NCBI GenBank assembly: GCA_030265395.1
Contig: JARFYF010000094.1
Location: 33,531,913 to 33,595,912 of the forward strand
DNA length: 64,000 nt
Direction: 5' to 3'
DNA from: Rhina ancylostomus
Lineage: Eukaryota
Shown here: in pieces, positions 6,852 through 51,250 of the stretch
How positions within the stretch are numbered: the first letter of the stretch is position 1
Layout of the letters: each line of letters begins with the position of its first letter
The notes under the pieces: generated by a model
Seen by the model: only the letters and a program-made list of their open reading frames with translations
The model's database searches: none
What the model was told of the DNA's origin: nothing
Program-made: the position numbers and the translations under genes

Positions 6852-7845
6852 AACATAGAACAGTACAGCACTGGGCAGGCCATTCGGCTCATGATGTTGT
6901 GCTGATCTTGATGCAGATTTATACTAAACTCTTGTTTATCATCCATATCCCTCCATTCCTTTCTTATTCATGTGTCTATCTAAAAGCCTCTTGAACTCCA
7001 CCAGACTGCCTGATTCCACTACCACCCCTTCCACCCATTCCAGGTATCTACCACTCTGCGTAAAAAACTTGCCCCTCACACCGCCTTTAAACTTTCCCCC
7101 TCTAATCTTAAAAGCATGTCCTCTGGTGTTTGACATTTCTACCCCAGGGAACAGATTCTGAGCATCTACCCTATCTATGCCTCTCATAATTTAAAAAGCC
7201 TCCATCAGGTCTCCCCTTAGCCTCTGATGCTCAAATGAGAACAACTTAAGTTTGTTCAACCTATCCTTATAGCTCATATCTTCTAATCCAGGCAGCATTC
7301 TGGTAAACCTCTTCAGCATCTTCTGAATGAATCTACCATAAGGGACCTTGTCAAATACCTTACTAAAGTCCACGTAGATAACATCCACTGCCTCACGCTT
7401 ATCAAGCACCTTTGTCACCTCCTCACAAAACTCATTCAAGTTTGTAAGACGTGACTTGCCCCATACAAAGCCATGCTGACTGTCCCTATGCAGGCCATGT
7501 GCACAAGTCCTATCTATCACCATCTTCTCCAATAGCTTCCCTACCACTGACACAAGGCTCATTGGCTTATAATTACCTGGAATATCCCTATTTTCCTTCT
7601 TGAACAAAGCCACAACATCTGCTACTCTCCAGTCCTCCGGGACCTCGCCTGTTCTAAGTGAGGACACAAAGATCCTTGTCAAAGCTCCAGCAATCTCCTC
7701 ACTTGCTTCCTTCAATATTCTGGAATATATGCCATGAAGCTCTGGTGACTTATCCACCTTAAAGCTTTTCAGAAGACCTAGCAATACCTCCTTCTTAATC
7801 TCCAAATGTCCCAGCACAATAGTATGCCCGACTCTGTTTTCATAG
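6852..7845 (-). mobile_element. CR1 LINE RT fragment, 5'-truncated and internally deleted
   Basis: ORF 7191-7922 contains PEDWRVADVV, PGNYKPMSLVSVVGKLLE, SQHGF..GKS.LTNL and VDVIYVDFSKVFDKVP. ORF 6939-7187 gives TRGH.FKIRG...FFTQ. The 3' tail ends GTACTGTTCTATGTT. Confidence 0.92.
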
Positions 7846-9017
7846 TGCTCATTTAGTTTACTTATCAAAATGTTGTCTGAATTCTCCACTAAAAGTTTAA
7901 AAATTAAATAATGTTTTGGCAATTAAAATTTATTTTGATTTTGTATTTTAAGTCACATAAATGGTATCTACTTATGCAATTTAATTTTGAACAAAAATGT
8001 GAAAGTAATTGAAACAGAACCACCACACATTACCTAGAGTGTTGTTTTGTCAATAGAAATGCCTGCGCTTACTATTTCCCCTTAAGTCTCACGTTCACAG
8101 TCACAGTGCTTTTTTTCCATTTCATTATTTTGATGAACTGCATTTCCATCAGGCCCCAATTCCATGAAGCCCTGTGCTGCCCTCATCCCCGGTATGTTGG
8201 ATTGTGCTGAATGGCACACAGTATTTACAGATATTGTTATCTTTATCTGTGACAAGAAGAATCAATCAATCACACTGCTTCATCTTTCTATATTCAAGGC
8301 ACATCTCTGCTGTTTTAGGCTACTGGATCACAATGTTATCCAATTGAATTTGATCAGCAAATGCACCACAGTGATCTCTGATGAAGACGTTATTAAGTGA
8401 AACTGAGCAAAGTGATGAAGGCAGAACACAAAAAGACAAGCACAGCTGGACATTTATAGTTGTCTGGATATTTTTTCATATTACCAAAGGTCAGCTTTTC
8501 TGTTCCAGAATTTCCTTTATTTGTAGTTCAAGAGCTGTAAGATTACAAACAGCAGGTGTCAAATAAAGAAAGCAAAATACAGGCTTAGAACTAGACGGAA
8601 ACCTCAAAAGTAATAGCTGTAACTGTTTGCCGAAAGAGATATTTTATATAAATTATTGTTTAAACTTCAGTCCACTTCACAATCCTGCAGTGCCAGGAAT
8701 GACAGGAGATATGGATTACTGATGGCATATTGATTTACTCTGCTAATAAAATTCCTGTTAAATTACCATACCCTACAATGATAAAATCCTTTTAAAAGTA
8801 CAATATCTACATATCATTTTAAATATTACAACAAAACAAAGCACAACTTCCCTTGACATTCTATGTGGCTTCCTACTATCGTTCATCCTGCACTCTCTTT
8901 CTTCCAGGTCAGAATGTAAGCTACAGTGCATGAAACTAGTGATTGGTTAATATTTTTATCCCAGAACAAAGGCTTAGCAACCTACTGGCATTTATTTTCC
9001 ATTTATCCTTCTTACAT

Positions 9018-27455: not shown

Positions 27456-27799
27456 GATGGAAATGCATGTGTTATTTGTGCATGCCAGAAGTATGCAGAG
27501 TAAGCATATCATAGCAACCCGAATGTGATGCTTATTTAATGCCAGCTGCCAAATTAGATCTTGATGATCCAGCTAATACCATGTATTTTAGCACATGTGG
27601 AAAAACAAGGATTTAACAGCAAAAAGAACACTACATGCCCTCATGCCAAAAAGGACCTGTGGAGCTTGGAAGTGTTTAATAGCTGGACTACCCCGTGATA
27701 GACAAGATGTATACAAGAGTTATGGCTGAATGTACTTTGTGCACATAGTCCCAAACTATTGCTGCCTTAGTGCTTTAGTGGTTATTCCTTTGAATCTGC

Positions 27800-28720
27800 A
27801 ATATAACATGGAAGAGAGTGTCCATGGACTAATGACAACTTGCTGGAAAAGGGAGAAGAGGGACAGTAGGGCTCTCAGCAGAAAAACCCATCCACAAAAA
27901 GGAACATTTCTCCTATACCTAGGTAAGCAAGAAGAAAGGAGAGACTCCATCTCAAAGGATGCGCCCACAAAGTTCTGACAGGTACCACACTGCATCTGCA
28001 TTGCAGAGAAGGACCAGGTCCACTCTGCCAATGGAAAGGGAGGCCACTGTGGCAATGAATTGCTGTTTCTTGGTTTTTCCAGGCTGGTACTTGGGACAGC
28101 AGTAAACATTTCTTTACTTGCTGTGCACAAAATTGCTTCGACAGATAATGAGCTTGATTTCATCGACTTTTCCTTGGGGAATGAGCAGGAAGCACTGAAA
28201 CCAAAGAAATCCTTGAGAATTGCAATCTTCCCAATGGACATGGAGTCAACAACTCCACCTATCTTGCCTTGCGGGCACCACATGAGAATCTGGAGATGTA
28301 CAATAAACCAAAGGATCTTGCTCCATGAAAGTATAACTCATCTGCAATCATTCCCAAAAACTCAGAATGGTTAATCCATGATGACCTGACAGCAGTCCTC
28401 ATTCACACATCTTGAAACAGACTGCTGTGCACTATTTTTGAATCAACATGCCAATTCAAAAGGTCTGAGATATGCTCTGGCTCCTCACACCAATCCAGAA
28501 CCCAGCCACCAGATGGAAATGCTCCCAGAATGAAAGATAGGCTGTTGTCAGCACATTACCGAACAAATCACTCTTCCACTACCTGGGTTACTCTGGCCGT
28601 ATCTTTCAGTATACAACAGAGCAACTATCTCCATTCTTCATTACATATTGGAACCTCCACAACCTGGCAATAATGCCAGAAGGGGGACAAGAATCAGCAA
28701 GAGAAAGAAAGGAGTAGGCA
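27800..28720 (+). mobile_element. Decayed PIF/Harbinger transposase (HARBI1-like DDE) relic
   Basis: TLPMEREATVAMNC at about 28022 (cf. LPVAVKVTVALNF), FLGFSR at about 28065, and FHYLGYSGRIFQYTTEQLSPFFITYWNLHNLA at 28574-28669 (cf. FRCLD.SGGALQY.P......IVACCxLHN). Confidence 0.7.
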
Positions 28721-39074: not shown

Positions 39075-39935
39075 AGAACCATAGAACAATACAGCACAAT
39101 ACAGGCCCTTCAGCCCACCAGATTGTGCCGACCTTCAAGCCACACGTAAGACTATCTAACCCCTTCCTCCCACATATCCCTCTATCTTAAATTTCTCCAT
39201 ATGCTTATCAAACAATCTCTTGAACTTGACCAACATACCAGCTTGCACTACCACCCCAGGCAGCACATTCCATGCACCAACNNNNNNNNNNNNNNNNNNN
39301 NNNNNNNNNNNNNNNNNNNNNNNNNNNNNNNNNNNNNNNNNNNNNNNNNNNNNNNNNNNNNNNNNNNNNNNNNNNNNNNNNCTTTCTTAACTACCCTATC
39401 CACCTGTGAGGCAACTTTCAGTGATCTGTGGATATGAACCCCCAGATCCTTCTGCTCCACACTACCCAGAATCCTGCCATTAACCTTGGAGTTTGTCTTT
39501 CCAAAGTGTACCACCTCACACTTCTCCAGACTGAACTCCATCTGCCACTCCTCAGCCCAGCTCTGCATCCTATCAATGTCCCTCTGCGATCTTTGAGAGT
39601 CCTCCACACTCTCCACAACACCATCAACCTTTGCGTCATCTGCAAACTTGCCAACCCACCCTTCCACCACCTCATCCAAGTTATTAATAAAAATCATGAA
39701 AAGCAGAGGTCCCAGAACCAATCCCTGTGGGACACCACTAGTCACAGCCCTCCAATCTGAATGCACTCCCTCCACCACAACCCTCTGATTTCTACAGGCA
39801 AGCCAATTCTGAATCCACGCAGTCAAGCCTCCATGGATCCCTTGGCCTCTGACCTTCTGAAGAAGCCTACCATGCGGAACCTTGTCAAACGCCTTACTAA
39901 AATCCACATAGACCACATCCACTGCACTACCCTCA
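39075..39935 (-). mobile_element. Relatively young 5'-truncated CR1 LINE (RT core)
   Basis: Open frame DVVYVDFSKAFDKVPHGRL...SGVPQGLVLGPLLF.IFIN...KFADD...WQMEF...KCEVVHFG; tail GTGCTGTATTGTTCTATGGTTCTA. Contains a 100-N gap. Confidence 0.93.
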
Positions 39936-41229
39936 TGAAATTTGATTTCACTGCAACTCTTAACACCTCAAACTAAATCCAAGTACTAGAACCCGAGCTC
40001 TTTCTTGGAATTCAATTTTTAACCAAAATATTCCCTCTCCATGCACTCTTTACATGTCTCCATCTTCTCCATAGTGCTGTAAAAATCTGGTTTTGTGCTT
40101 TAATGCACAATTTCTCCACTGCTCATCCTACCACCTCTCTTCCATAAAATTCCATTCACGCAAAAAGCTGTGGTCCATATTCTCACCCAAATAAAAACTC
40201 ATTTAACACCCCAAAGACTTGATTTCAAAATCTTTCTCCAGTTTTTCTGTCTTTCCACACCAATACAATACCTTCTTGCTTTCCTTGAAATTTAAATCTC
40301 ACTCAGAAACACTCCTCTTCTCACAACAGGTTTACTCACCATTTCCATTCTTATGGATTGCAACAATCACCCTAAGTCACTGGCAACTGCTTATGGCATA
40401 AAATACCATTTACCTGTGTATTGTTTGCCAAAGAAAATTAACAAACACTGTCTTCTCTGCAAACACTATGTGAAGTATGTTATCCAATTTCATCTCATTT
40501 GTTCATATAGGTCTACATATTCTGTATTCTAAGATCTAAGTCTGTATTCATGACTTAAAATACTGCAATTCAGAAGTAATTTACCAGATCTAAAATGCTT
40601 TCGTACATCTTGAGTTTGTGAAAGGTACTTCATAAAAGCAACCTTCATCTTTATTTCTTCTATGGGATTTATTCACTAAACACATCAAACCTGCCAACTG
40701 CTTTCAGGAACCTGCTCATAAACATCTGCTCAATGGTAATATAGCTCCTTCTGAGCTCTCCTCCACTTCTAACCTTTCTTCATTCCTTGCACTGTTACTT
40801 TTGGTCCTGCATGTAAAATGTCCAAGTACCTTTGTCTCTATTTTCTAAACAGCATTGTTTACCAAGCATTGGTTTGATCATACTAACAGCTTATGTTAAA
40901 TGTCATAAAACACAAACACAAAATACTCGGCTTCTATTCTGACCAAATGAATCCATTCCCAGCTTCACGTCATTCTATGTGATTTGTTTCTCGAGATCAT
41001 TTAAATCAGACCAAATGGTGAATCTGATTAACTATTTCATTGAAAGTGATGACAAAAACATGGGAAGTGACCCACATTTTCATGATCTCTTCATTATCTT
41101 TTATTTTTGGAAGGTTGTGATGCACCATCAGGGCAGATTGGATGAGGACATCTGTTTTGTATATGTTTGGTATAATACTCACTCTCATACACTTCAGTCA
41201 CAAGTTGATAATGACTAGGGGATCAGCAC

Positions 41230-45000: not shown

Positions 45001-47741
45001 GGATTCTATGTAATTGGTTGCACATAAGTGGTTCAGCAAATTTGTATTTTTCCTCAGGTCCCAACCACTGATGTCATGCATGATTGAAATTTCAAAAAAA
45101 AGAAAACTGAAAACTCTGAACGGGCACACGTTCACCCAGCTTTGTGCAACCATTGCTCAACCACCAAATAAATCTATTTACTTATTTGTCCAGGAGTGTG
45201 GTATGTTTGATCTGCAATAGTACTGGCTAGCACATTGATGTTGAGACTAGAAGGGACTTTTTTTAAAAATATTGGGGCTGTGCATTCGCTTCAGATTAAT
45301 TGACTCAGAAGTTGTCCTGACTCACAAAATCCTCTAGCACTTAGGAGCTCATACGTACTTGTTTTCTTCTGCCCAGTAAATAAACACCAGTGAAAACTGG
45401 TATGCACAATATCAGCATTATACTGTTATATTGAGAAAAACAGTCATCCTTTAACCTTTTATTAATAAATCACTGCACCAGCTCAAGTACACTTCAGATC
45501 CATCAGGCAGCCTGTAAATGCACTTTACCTATGTTTAAATTCTGTCTGCTCAGCTCTATTTATCAATAAATGCTAGCAATTGCAAAATACCCGTGTTTAT
45601 TTTTCCTAGAACACCGATATGAGCAAGGTGCAATATGCAAGCACTGCAGAACAAATTCACAGCAATCTTCAGCACCAATCTGAATTAAGAGGCCAGGATC
45701 TAAACCATACCTTTTATGCAGTCAGGTAGTCTCAAAGAGAGATATCTACAATTTTGCCTTATGTGACTGGCTGGTGGCATTTCCAGAAAAGAATTTAGTG
45801 ACAGTGTCTACCTTGCTTTTGGAACAGAATGAAGTCCTTTCTCTGTGGCCCTCTTGTGGCAGGTTTCACAGGTAGTACCTTGGCATTATGCAGAATAACC
45901 TGGCAGGCTTCATGCAACAAGTTTTGTTCTTTCTTCCTTTTTTTTGAGAAAATGTGATTGGTCACTTGAAGACTAATAATGTAACTCAGATTAATTCAAT
46001 TTAGAAGTACTGATCAACATTCATGCGCAAGAGTTTTAGGAGTCCTTTCAATGTCCCTAACCAATGACTCCTTGCATTTCATCCACAATTGAGTAGTCCG
46101 AAGTGCTGACCTTTCTCAATCTTAATCTCAAAAGGCCAGGTGTAAAGCAAAGTTTCAGATAAATTGTAGCAATTTTAAGTTTGTACTCNNNNNNNNNNCA
46201 AAAGACATCCATGAATTTGTAGGTAATATAAAATTGCTGTAGCATTGTTAAGATATAAGATTTCATTGGACCTTTGGTCCCTTTACTAAATTAAAATGGC
46301 AGCATTCACCTGTCCCCCAAAAGCTTTATAGACACCATCAGTCAAAATCTGTTTGGATTACATGCTGATCTGATCATTCTGAACAAACCAAACCTAATTA
46401 CAATTTACAGTATTATTACTGAAACCAAAGACATCTACCAAAACATATCCAATTACTAGTCAAATCTGTGCTTATGGGTAGAGTATAACATGGCATAGAG
46501 TTATTTTTTCCGTGCAGTGCAAACGGGTACAATTTGATACACAACCCAAATAACTCAACTTCTAGATGTCTTTGGCCCAAATTTAAATTTTGCAGTAGCA
46601 GTGCCAGGTAGTCATTAGCTCCTCCTAAACTCATGCTGGATTTATCAGTCTGTGCGCTTAAACCAGAGAACTACATGCTGATTGAGCTCAGCATCACAGT
46701 TATACAGGCTGCTATCAGCATGCAGCTTCAGGCGTTCAAAACATTCCTCTCAAAATACACATCCACTGTGGTCGCAGCATTTTCACAAGTCAGATACAGG
46801 AGACCACCATCTGACCTAGATTAGCTCAATCATGTGGAAAGACATTGTCTTCCAAAATGACGTTTGGTGGTTCTTAGATGTTTCACCCCGTGTAATACAT
46901 GGAAGTTCCTTCCATGTGTTGACCACTCTGAAAGAGGAACTTCCTGACAGAAGTGACAAATTTGATCTTTGTTTTTACCTATGACTTTAAAGATTTGATT
47001 TGAAGCAACATTGCAGATCTATTGTTTACGATTTTAAACACTTCAAGTTCTTTTCTAATATTCTAATGTACACTCAAAGCTTCTCCTATGATAATAAAAG
47101 ATTCGCTTCTTTTGAACTCAAGCCCATATTTTTGGAAAAACTGCAAAGTGCCTTTACTGTATGGCTAAGTAAAATGTGATTATTATGCCTGGTATCAAGC
47201 AACTAATCAATATAATTAACCAAATGATAAATGTTGTTAAAGGAGGAAATTCTTAATACTTTGACCTTAAGAAAACAGTGAATAGTAGAAATTGAACTGA
47301 TGATAATTTGGGAGACACAATTCACCAACTCAGTCATATTTTTATTTGTTCTCATTTTAAAAAGCAGAGCTCATATTTTTTTTAAAAAACTACAAAGCAA
47401 ATGTTTTAAATCCTTTTTGAACAATTCTGATTTTGTTTTTATGTTACACATTAATCGAAGATATACTTTGTTGTTTTTGCACAGCATATCAGAATCTGCC
47501 CCTGGCAAAGAATGGGGAAAAGTCAACAGGAATTAAGTTTCAGTGCAACTGTTTACTCAACTGTGGCCTGCAGTTATTGAAATTTTATCCATGGTTTTGT
47601 GTGACTACAGCAATAATGAATTCAGCATGACTGCAGTTCTCTAAGTAATGGCACATTTACTTCAAGCATCAACCTGCATATGTACACTGAGGTAAAAACT
47701 GGAATCTGCAGCAAAAGAAAAACCTATGGCACAATATATAC

Positions 47742-47912
47742 CTGCTGTTGCTGGAGATGAACCAATTCAGCAGCGGTCACTTCAATCGCGGATATATCGC
47801 CGTTTGATCTCCCCTCCCTTGTGCTACTGTCTGGATAGTGGTTACCACTGCTAGCTCCGTTCTGATTGGCTGAAACGTTGCTTGCTGCCTCAGTTCCAGA
47901 TTCTTGCATCAT
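47742..47912 (-). CDS. foxp1: Forkhead box P1, first coding exon (57 aa, N-terminus up to the poly-Q)
   Basis: Translates as MMQESGTEAASNVSANQNGASSGNHYPDSSTREGRSNGDISAIEVTAAELVHLQQQQ, matching the FOXP1 N-terminus (MMQESGTE...NH...REGRSNG...AA). It ends in phase 0 at CAG|GTATAT. SGTE, NH and REGRSNG favour FOXP1 over FOXP2. Confidence 0.9.
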
Positions 47913-47940
47913 GACTTAAAAACCTGAAAAGTAATTCAAA
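47913..47940 (-). other. foxp1: Splice acceptor and 11-nt 5'UTR part of the exon (exon starts at 47923)
   Basis: Minus strand reads TTTGAATTACTTTTCAG|GTTTTTAAGTC-ATGATG: pyrimidine tract, AG, 11 nt, then tandem ATG with G at -3. This layout agrees with my recollection of the tetrapod FOXP1 first coding exon. Confidence 0.85.
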
Positions 47941-50809
47941 ACAACAGTTGAAAAAAGTAATTTTAGATTTTTATCCTTATTTTCCAAGTTGTCAAAATGG
48001 TGAATGTGTAGCATCAAAAGATCTATTTATTTTGAAGTGCCATACACATGCTTTGTATTTACTTAATTTCCAACACTATGTTTTAGTACAAATATAAATA
48101 GCACACATTGTTATTTTCTATTCACTGGATTGTACTGCTTTCGTGGTAATTAGTTTCACTGGTGGTGTTAAAATAAAGTGCCTGTAAAACTAAATGCCTT
48201 TGAAATTTTTGAAGGATTTAATTGAGCCTTATTTTGTATCAGTACTGTGAGACACAATTAAAATCCAACAAAAGGCCAAAAGAAGACAATTAAGCTCATT
48301 TTCCTCCAGTAACTGCTATGAACAAAAATGCAGCAACCCATTACATACTCGCATTAACTTTTTCTCATTCTTATTGGAGACTGAGAAAAAAATATTCTGG
48401 TTAATGGATATCTGCCTTAAAAGCAGCATTTTAGATCAGTCTAATTAGTTGTAAAGTAATAGTAGTCATATTCAAAATTTGCCACACAATTCTATTTTTA
48501 AGTTTTTTTTGTCAGGACCAGCACAGAGTCAGAAGTGATCCTGTCACTCATTATAGATTCACCATGTGGATAAAGTACACAAGTCAGCTAGTGCCTGTGA
48601 AACTGCACTCCAGCAGAGAGTCAGTGCCTTCAAGAGACAAAGGGAAAAGGTGAAACTAGGGAAAAAATAAACCAGACCAGCTATTGGTCCATATTAATAT
48701 CTGTAATCTGCAAACAAAGATCTGTCTGTAGTTATGCTGGACGAACTGTAAAACAGGCTGATTAGCTGGATTCATTGCATGCTTTTTGGACAACACCATG
48801 ATGAACTATTAATCCTTACATGACAATTAATCTGAAGCTAAGAATAGCAACTAAAAATATCCATGCAACTGGATTAACAATGTAGTATCTTATTGATATT
48901 TATGAAAAGAAAGATTTCCTTAAAAACTTATGACTGCTCGACATCAAGTTCAATTACAGAACAACAATAAAGTTAAGCTAATTTTTATTGGCTCAATGCA
49001 TCTGTATTTCAAAATAAACCAGAGTACTTTGCAAAGATGGTGTGTGAAAAACATGTTCTGGAAAATATAAGTTTATATCTCCTGATGGTTAGGAAATAAA
49101 ATCTCAACAGTCTGACGCAAGAAGCACTGCCTCCTTAACTTTGGTTTGCCTTTGGCAGCTGGCAGGCTTTTAATTCACTTCGCACCTTGATAGTGATGTA
49201 CTTCTGTGATCTAAACCCAACCATAACTCTGTACTTTGATGAATTAACCTTTTAAGAAAAGTTGCTCAGCTAACAAGAAGAGGCTTTATTCCTGGACAGT
49301 TAATGAAGGTTGACCAAGTCAGGCTGAAATGAATTAACTTAACTGATCAATTATTTATATGAAGCAGAAAAAATGCCCTTAAAACACTCTGCCTAATCAT
49401 CAAAGGAAGTGAAAATTGAACTAAACACAGATTTATAATATCACATGCTTACTCCTGTGGGAAGCTCAGTCACTGGAACCACAATGGCACTAATAAAAGC
49501 CGACTCACAAAGGTTCTAAATTAAAACAATTCCAAATGCTGTATGACAGTAAGTGTGAAATAGTAAAGAATATTACCAAATCTGTAAACTAGAAACAAAA
49601 TTATCCAAACACAATGTGTTGAAAATGCAGTTTAAAAACACAACATACCATTCTGCTGATATTATGCATGCACTGTCGCTCCATAATGAATTTTCACAAT
49701 TATAAAAGGGAAGGAGTAAATTTTCTAATGCACAGCAGCTAAAAAGTAATCAAGAGAATGAGCCTAAAGGCTATTTCAATGTATGCAAAATTACTGACCC
49801 ACAGTAAACCAAAGGTAGCCCACAATGAATGTAGAATAATGCCCAAATGCTAAGTACCTATTCTGATGAGGAACAGCTAAAATTAACACTCAATTAATTT
49901 TTTGAATCGACAAACAAATGAAACTCATAAATCTATCTTCTCATTAATTTTACTGTAGTGTAATACCATTCTCCAATATCGAGAAGAAATCTTAAGTGTT
50001 ATCCATCATGAATATCAAAAAAGGGTAGCACTAAAACAGCATAAATTATGTATATTACCTGTTGGTAAAAATGATAAATGTTTTATCATTTCCAATGCAT
50101 AATGTGAGTTTCAGCATTATTGAAGATAAAAATGTGATTTTCTTTGAATACTCATCCAGAGCAAAAGTGTATTAATTAAAAGGGGAAAAGGCCCTGCTTC
50201 ACAAACACACAATTTGTCAAGGTCACTGTGCCTGTATTCTTTTCCCTTATCTTTGACCTGTCCCAGCATTCTGTTGTCAATATTAACAGGTTTTGTCAGG
50301 TTTAAATGCACAACAAATATTCTAAAACAACAACAACATTCAAAGCAATAACACAGGCAGTCCTTATGAAGGTTTTGAACTTGTTTACCAAACACCGCGA
50401 GAAACAAACTAAGCATACGGTCACCTGCAACCACCTCCCAAGCCTGCAGCATAACACTGCACTTCTGACAGAGGCCTGTTAAGACAGCATTTGTTGGACA
50501 AAGAACTTTCTGTCCATCTCTGATGCGCACAGTAAGCCCGTATTCTTCTGTACAGCTTTGCCTTCTCTTTTGGTCGAGGCGTAGGGGGAAGGAAGAGAAA
50601 GCAAACAACTGCATAGATACCATTCCATTCTAAGGAAATCTAGTGGAGAATGAAACAGCTTGATAATCTGCTGCCCACTTCATTGAAGTCTCTGATAAGA
50701 AAAGCAAACCCAAGTCTGCTTGAGCTGCATTCCATGGACAAGTTCCCTTCTTCTTTATCAAAACACAGCATTAAGTTTTGTCCAACCATACAGGATAAAC
50801 TGTTGCTCA

Positions 50810-51250
50810 CACCCGTAAACAGGGGTATATTTGTTTAATAACTGATTGCTGCCATAGCTACTGTAAACAAGGTGCCTGCATTTGTGCTCATGAACAAACA
50901 CATCATCTTGCAAGACCAATTTAACATTAACCAGGTGAAATAATCAACAGATTTTGTAGGTGACACTCAGCCAAGACAATGTAAACAGATTGGAGGAGGA
51001 GAAAGGGGCCCCGTACTTAGGGAATCAAGGTCGAGGCAATGCATTGTGGCTTGAGTAAACAGTGGAAAGAACTTAAAGACAAACAACTAGTTAGTCTTCA
51101 TTCATCCATTGACATTTATACAAGTGGTGATTTTTGTATATTAAGGTATAGCAGCTGCAGCCCCAAATCATGATATCAGCCCAGTGAGAAACCAGGACAA
51201 CTTGTTTATACAAGGTTCTGTTTACTCACAAACAGCAATTGTTTGCATCA
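50810..51250. promoter_or_regulatory. Homotypic forkhead-site cluster (candidate enhancer)
   Basis: GTAAACA at 50815, 50863, 50981 and 51055; TGTTTAC at 51219; RYAAAYA variants at 50894, 51079, 51203, 51228 and 51240. Confidence 0.55.

Follow-up and report, generated by a model that had tools for sequence, protein, structure and literature searches.

What does a dense group of forkhead sites do when it lies in the intron just ahead of the first protein-coding exon in FOXP1, itself a forkhead gene, and how old is it? The window analysed, a stretch of 64,000 nucleotides from the batoid fish Rhina ancylostomus, carries such a group, and an initial annotation drawn from its letters proposed that it is a homotypic cluster for FOXP1 itself or for FOXO/FOXA factors, a feedback module possibly ancient in jawed vertebrates. 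We have compared the cluster with the surrounding locus, with the paralogous FOXP2 and FOXP4 loci and with published FOXP elements, and consider below which parts of that proposal the comparisons favor and which proteins might read the sites.

The FOXP1 locus and its forkhead cluster

From the ATG onward (47739-47912, minus strand), the start exon is 98% identical to FOXP1 of Pristis, and 24 of its 26 matches are named FOXP1, the other two being unnamed. The cluster lies 2.9-3.3 kb 5' of this ATG, in agreement with the first estimate of about 3 kb, and it is intronic because an AG splice acceptor stands 11 nt before the ATG in FOXP1 and FOXP2 alike. Two other FoxP start exons are present in the genome, on contigs C29 and C53, which we take to be FOXP2-like and FOXP4-like, respectively, from the known human sequences and by exclusion. 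Coordinates are collected in Table 1.

Table 1. Positions of FOXP1 features in the window and of related segments elsewhere in the genome.
Feature	Position	Strand	Remarks
First coding exon of FOXP1	47739..47923	-	ATG at 47912; 11 nt 5' of it, AG splice acceptor
Third, weak block	49892..49931	-	FOXP1 -2019..-1980 vs FOXP2 -826..-787
Second block	50001..50102	-	FOXP1 -2190..-2089 vs FOXP2 -969..-871
Sixth exact GTAAACA	50382..50388	-	430 bp proximal to the cluster; absent from the initial annotation
Dense forkhead cluster	50810..51250	.	motif counts and background/locus scans
Exact GTAAACA	50815..50821	+	outside the FOXP2-aligned block
Further RYAAAYA sites	50828, 50894, 51079, 51203, 51228, 51240		motif search
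Core block	50842..50931	-	FOXP1 -3019..-2930 vs FOXP2 -1638..-1549 from the ATG (C29)
Exact GTAAACA	50863..50869	+	retained in FOXP2; TTGTTTAC on the gene strand of both genes
ACAAACA	50894..50900	+	retained in FOXP2
Exact GTAAACA, distal part	50981..50987	+	no FOXP2 counterpart found
Exact GTAAACA, distal part	51055..51061	+	no FOXP2 counterpart found
Tight distal four-site group	51203..51246	mixed	51203 -, 51219 - (exact), 51228 +, 51240 -
FOXP2/FOXP4 match	C29 -13141..-13096 from the FOXP2 ATG; C53 -9531..-9486 from the FOXP4 ATG		
Prokineticin-family genes	C94:33968773-33977381 and C53:15890684-15894413		kept paralogous neighbourhood

Other features of the locus and its paralogues can be noted in passing. 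CpG-island-like tiles at C94:33781413-33782162 and 33859413-33860412, at 202 and 280 kb 5' of the FOXP1 ATG, are candidate distal promoters of the gene and contain no exact GTAAACA. FOXP1 and FOXP4 alike have a prokineticin-family gene about 390-460 kb to their 5' side, on the strand of the FOXP gene in either case, and a fourth FOXP zinc-finger exon (C122:32570-32641, on a 50-kb contig) probably belongs to FOXP3. Within the window, open frames at 7191-7922 and 39248-39967 (both on the minus strand) overlap repeat-covered segments and resemble fragments of LINE reverse transcriptase. At 27730-28374, in sequence free of background repeat matches, several long open frames overlap one another on the two strands and are possibly a decayed retrocopy.

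All five of the exact GTAAACA sites first reported are in place, within a span of 411 bp. The further RYAAAYA sites had been counted as five and number six, giving 11 in 50810-51250; five of the six conform to RYAAACA, for a total of 10 RYAAACA sites, half of them the exact TGTTTAC consensus. Two variants carry A-rich letters, ACAAATA at 50828 and ATAAACA at 51203. The sites occur in both orientations at spacings of 9-124 bp, with intervals of 16, 9 and 12 bp in the tight distal group, and the exact motif continues as GTAAACAR at all six copies when the proximal one is included. The cluster has a GC content of 0.38 and a CpG observed/expected ratio of 0.23, and is without a CpG island. On the transcribed strand, UGUUUAC is what four of the five exact sites spell, as they might if this were an intronic RNA element governing splicing of the ATG exon and not a DNA element at all; with sites in both orientations, 2.9 kb from the acceptor and exactly matching a known DNA consensus, we find this reading far-fetched.

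The rarity of the cluster was gauged against a background of 353,673 non-N bases in 40 stretches of 10 kb from three contigs. Exact sites occur there at 0.156 per kb, or 0.069 per 441 bp (the rough initial expectation was about 0.1); none of 717 tiles contains more than two, and the sliding maximum is three. For RYAAACA, the 10 observed compare with 0.41 expected. When the window's own 19 exact sites are placed at random, five fall within 411 bp with a probability of 1.15e-4, and GTAAACA ranks first among 2265 7-mer classes for clustering, with a scan value of 1.4e-4 that a blind correction over all 2265 classes raises to about 0.3 (hand calculation), at which level the clustering is not significant. 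The non-exact RYAAACA sites are enriched independently (5 versus 0.34-0.46 expected, P 3e-5 to 1e-4; within the strict 411-bp span, 3 versus 0.32-0.43, P 0.004-0.01). We regard the cluster as significant because the motif is the expected one, because the secondary sites are independently enriched, and because of a density scan of the whole 564-kb locus (534,630 non-N bases), in which it is the top 441-bp window, with 5 exact and 10 RYAAACA sites against 2 exact or 5 RYAAACA in the next best. The forkhead cluster is real, and unique within 564 kb of the FOXP1 locus.

Its description as non-repetitive also stands: the cluster contains no tandem array, is present in a single genomic copy and has no background-repeat matches, and an origin from a tandem repeat or a transposon was rejected on these grounds. 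The flanks of the six exact sites are mutually unrelated. The genome does contain a minisatellite family with units of 31-33 bp, dispersed on contigs C54, C56, C63, C67, C69, C70 and C72; each unit has one exact GTAAACA, so artificial forkhead clusters are to be expected in motif scans of the same genome.

Blocks in common with FOXP2

The intron 5' of the FOXP1 ATG was compared with the matching regions of FOXP2 and FOXP4. Three colinear, same-strand (plus/plus) matches connect FOXP1 with FOXP2, and their order is kept in the two genes (-3019/-1638, -2190/-969, -2019/-826, then the ATG), the core block lying about 740 bp further 5' than the second block in FOXP1 and about 580 bp further in FOXP2. 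The core is identical at 64 of 87 aligned bases and includes TGTTTGT and TTGTTTAC, two forkhead 7-mers that are 31 bp apart in both genes and 100% identical in the alignment. Its score against FOXP2 is 50, whereas the maximum in 300 dinucleotide shuffles of the 6 kb is 41 (0 of 300 reach it) and the maxima in real sequence are 37 (168 pieces of 2 kb) and 32 (46 pieces of 6 kb). To cancel the advantage of a shared motif, the cluster was also compared with 101 real windows centred on TGTTTAC, among which the FOXP2 window scores 50 and the other 100 score at most 37. In a search of 116 kb against 29 kb, the core match taken alone has an E value of 0.12, so its support depends on the local, colinear context, and the two-motif pattern of the core is matched four times genome-wide, FOXP1 and FOXP2 included, versus three times for the reversed control.

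The second block is identical at 80 of 106 positions (E 6e-17); it is non-coding, and its FOXP2 copy lies at about 25372999-25373097 of C29. Both copies contain TATGCA, a GATA-like word and a palindrome-like CATAATTTATG, words that are POU/homeodomain-like. The third block has 70% identity over 40 bp (E 0.29) and is not significant alone. An inverted 93-bp match (71%) was also seen between FOXP1 at about -72.3 kb (L025:6113-6312) and FOXP2 at about -8.7 kb (L012:703-778); it recurs at a background locus, L071, and is thus probably an old repeat. For the distal part of the cluster we found no counterpart in FOXP2 (its score is equalled in 191 of 200 shuffles), nor for the stretch between the core and the second block (157 of 200), and the 6 kb upstream of the FOXP4 ATG yielded no counterpart of the cluster (66 of 300).

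Retention of the core in two paralogues argues for a pre-duplication origin and long selection, the simplest object of which would be forkhead binding; the core is likely to be older than the early-vertebrate duplication that separated FOXP1 from FOXP2, and to have been kept by selection. The idea of a possibly ancient homotypic cluster is thereby upheld and made stronger: the core is common to FOXP2, but only two of the ten RYAAACA sites, and one of the five exact ones, can be traced that far back. One exact and one variant site would be old and the remaining sites, as far as can be seen, specific to FOXP1, the non-core sites presumably having been either gained in FOXP1 or lost from FOXP2.

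In another reading, the two-site core alone is functional and the other sites are chance occurrences or the decayed remains of a minisatellite. Tight GTAAACA triplets do occur elsewhere in the genome (75 matches, against 55 for a reversed control) and are mostly visible minisatellites, a Poisson estimate gives 0.2-5 clusters of such density per genome, and the distal sites are without paralogous support. Against this are the lack of a tandem array, the unrelated flanks of the six sites, the presence of both orientations, and the overlap of the cluster, inside a forkhead gene, with a paralogous block that was detected independently, and we judge neutrality of the non-core sites to be quite improbable.

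A survey of sequencing runs for words of the segment 50760-51300 covered 24 runs, 20 of them with some of the words; they come from 13 studies and 11 organism labels, and the first-ranked one may be the source itself. Seven labels contain the words at shares of at least 0.2, so the segment is genuine and relatives have it too; four others (H-K), with small shares of 0.04-0.11, were left out of the comparison, and no RNA run is among those listed. Contigs from four of the 24 runs (organisms D-G) were compared over 49800-50905, and the pieces obtained covered the flanks and none of the five exact sites. Organism E, the one DNA organism with long pieces, differs by 6 other letters and 5 gap bases in 49800-50242 and by 6 letters and 2 gap bases in 50292-50574. 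Its flanks are thus about 98% identical, and neither the 106-bp block nor the exact site at 50382 has a listed substitution. Organism D yielded one unrelated partial piece and organism F none on 49800-50905; such gaps in coverage are no evidence of absence. In organism G, 12 of 166 positions differ in 50588-50753 (93% identity); by hand calculation this predicts a word survival of about 0.10 and the shares in the cluster are 0.24 and 0.21, an excess over the flank prediction that we take as a weak hint only.

Candidate readers of the cluster

Homotypic clusters, in which many sites for one family of transcription factors lie at irregular spacing within a few hundred bases, are a feature of developmental regulator genes; the FOXP1 cluster differs in two respects, since its host gene itself encodes one of the proteins that bind such sites and one part of it recurs in a paralogue. 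The motif TGTTTAC is the core bound by FOXO proteins. It is equally the FOXP2 consensus, so the cluster holds the consensus of its own product five times, and the broader RYMAAYA theme is common to most forkhead subfamilies (PMC3695516). That the sequence forms a functional forkhead-bound element of some kind seems to us highly probable. Our best explanation, on which belief and doubt are evenly balanced, is that the cluster is a FOXP1 enhancer that reads forkhead levels through competition between FOXO-type activators and FOXP products. FOXO-type activators would switch FOXP1 on through the cluster, and the FOXP1, FOXP2 and FOXP4 products would compete for the same sites and so set the level of FOXP1 by feedback. 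We are doubtful that FOXP1 itself is the main reader, and the autoregulatory role first proposed for the sites stays putative, because TGTTTAC does not separate FOXP from FOXO, FOXK, FOXA and other proteins.

Published work bears on such a circuit. In human cells FOXP2 occupies a place 100 bp away from the main FOXP1 start, and autoregulation has been proposed (PMC3695516); FOXP1 and FOXP2 raise the activity of reporters driven by the FOXP2 promoter and by two enhancers (PMC5826363). These cases resemble the present one in having a forkhead consensus in a FOXP gene that is read by FOXP proteins. They differ in location, being FOXP2 TSS1, enhancers -37 and 815 and the peak at the main FOXP1 start, not the intron before the ATG exon, and in the accessible parts of those reports none is described as a dense or duplicated cluster. 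It counts against the competition enhancer that, as far as the accessible parts go, the FOXP binding reported for FOXP1 falls on the distant main promoter and not on the intron cluster. FOXO3 is reported to induce Foxp1, which then represses FOXO3 targets (PMC5688236, citing van Boxtel 2013); this loop follows the same logic, and its cis-element may or may not be orthologous to the cluster.

The initial suggestion that FOXP dimers can bridge sites finds no support in the geometry of the cluster. Runs of TnG, or inverted forkhead pairs with a gap of 3-4 nt, are absent from it; at 51219 there is one inverted pair, with a gap of 2 nt. FoxP1 binds isolated forkhead motifs in vitro, and does so as a monomer; it does not form the head-to-head dimer (10.1101/2025.09.16.676304). 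The head-to-head and TnG sites of FoxP3 described in the same source share with the cluster the closeness of several forkhead motifs, but they use TnG runs or inverted pairs 3-4 nt apart and the FOXP1 cluster has neither, so that a FoxP3-type dimer, multimer or bridging site was rejected. Independent binding to single sites, with effects that add up, would suit the cluster better than a fixed dimer site because the spacing is irregular, both orientations occur and dimer geometry is lacking.

The cluster could also be a tissue enhancer for lineage forkheads of the FOXA, FOXC, FOXF, FOXG or FOXK type, free of FOXP feedback. The two A-rich variants count in favour of this, as does a homeodomain/POU-like block that adjoins the cluster. 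Since one motif serves most forkhead subfamilies (PMC3695516), the letters leave room for them. Yet half of the RYAAACA sites are the exact TGTTTAC consensus, and FOXP proteins would presumably be present wherever the enhancer is active; we hold a purely lineage-forkhead enhancer to be possible and on the unlikely side.

A different view of the blocks takes them as upstream elements of an internal promoter near the ATG exon, comparable to FOXP2 TSS4, instead of a long-range enhancer acting on a distal promoter. One start site of human FOXP2 lies at exon 2 and shows enrichment of Pol II with primer pair 9 (PMC5826363). The reverse primer of that pair matches FOXP2 here at 19 of 23 bases, 64 bases before the ATG, which places the shared blocks about 0.9 and 1.6 kb upstream of the amplicon. 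Three other primers that were tried matched no better than background, however, the splice acceptor of the FOXP1 ATG exon is an ordinary one, the cluster has no CpG island, and CpG-island-like stretches are found 202 and 280 kb upstream. An internal promoter is improbable on this evidence, and is in any case not mutually exclusive with the competition enhancer.

Published FOXP elements and implications

A 46-bp non-repeat match between FOXP2 and FOXP4 (78%, E 1e-4) is probably the catalogued pair SB31SB44DP1. The 106-bp block at 50001-50102 is probably the catalogued pair SB18SB44DP4, which we map to the human sequence by position, because the distance to the FOXP2/FOXP4 pair is 12.9 kb in human versus 12.2 kb here; the human ATG coordinates agree with this. 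SB18SB44DP4, which joins chr3:71254138-71254558 to chr7:114065464-114066000, is one of six human FOXP1/FOXP2 paralogous non-coding pairs (PMC3595034). Its FOXP1 copy is VISTA element1160, negative in the mouse assay at e11.5, and every brain ChIP column listed for the human element reads zero (supplementary table 2 of PMC3595034). This negative result for a neighbouring, probably corresponding human element counts against the enhancer reading. The tabulated coordinates fit hg19, as the rows for element218 overlap enhancer 330, and the methods name NCBI36 as the assembly (PMC3595034).

The catalogued pairs resemble the present blocks in their non-coding, colinear similarity between the two loci, and in the accessible parts of PMC3595034 their motif content is not given, whereas the core block here is a forkhead pair. 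Judged by position relative to the human ATGs, the core seems to be absent from the six pairs listed in the accessible parts of PMC3595034, and the McEwen 2006 list may include it. A comparison of FOXP1 -116 kb to 0 with FOXP2 -29 kb to 0, with repeats masked, did not bring up the human pairs 464 and 465. Assembly gaps at FOXP2 -9.6 kb and at FOXP1 -30.5 and -33.1 kb may hide them. In zebrafish, foxP2 enhancer A is a 9.7-kb fragment 5' of the first coding exon that drives brain expression (PMC2579431). Among the titles and abstract openings searched, none describes a forkhead cluster 5' of the FOXP1 ATG exon; the accessible parts of PMC13227211 and PMC8339667 contain nothing on a FOXP1 intron element, and the supplementary files of PMC3695516 that were searched contain no chr3 coordinates, though other peak lists may bear on binding. 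What is new is the forkhead core and cluster as an element, and what is known is FOXP auto- and cross-regulation and the existence of FOXP1/FOXP2 paralogous elements. The gain is accordingly a new element and not a new principle, since both cross-regulation and duplicated elements are already in print.

Both FOXP1 and FOXP2 are sensitive to dosage and underlie disorders of neurodevelopment and speech, and an input has been named for few of the elements that control them. The present element is short and testable and has a defined motif grammar; kept in both paralogues, it offers a specific place to seek FOXO and FOXP binding as well as non-coding variants in human FOXP1 and FOXP2. As a speculation that we think rather unlikely to hold in full, the ancestral FoxP gene may, ahead of the genome duplications of vertebrates, have had just 5' of its first coding exon a forkhead-sensing feedback enhancer, of which FOXP1 and FOXP2 would have kept the two-site core and FOXP1 a ten-site version, leaving a shared cross-regulatory circuit of differing strength; mouse reporter screens at e11.5 would then have missed it because the fragment tested stopped short of the sites. 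If this is true, forkhead feedback on FoxP genes would date from before the split of the paralogues.
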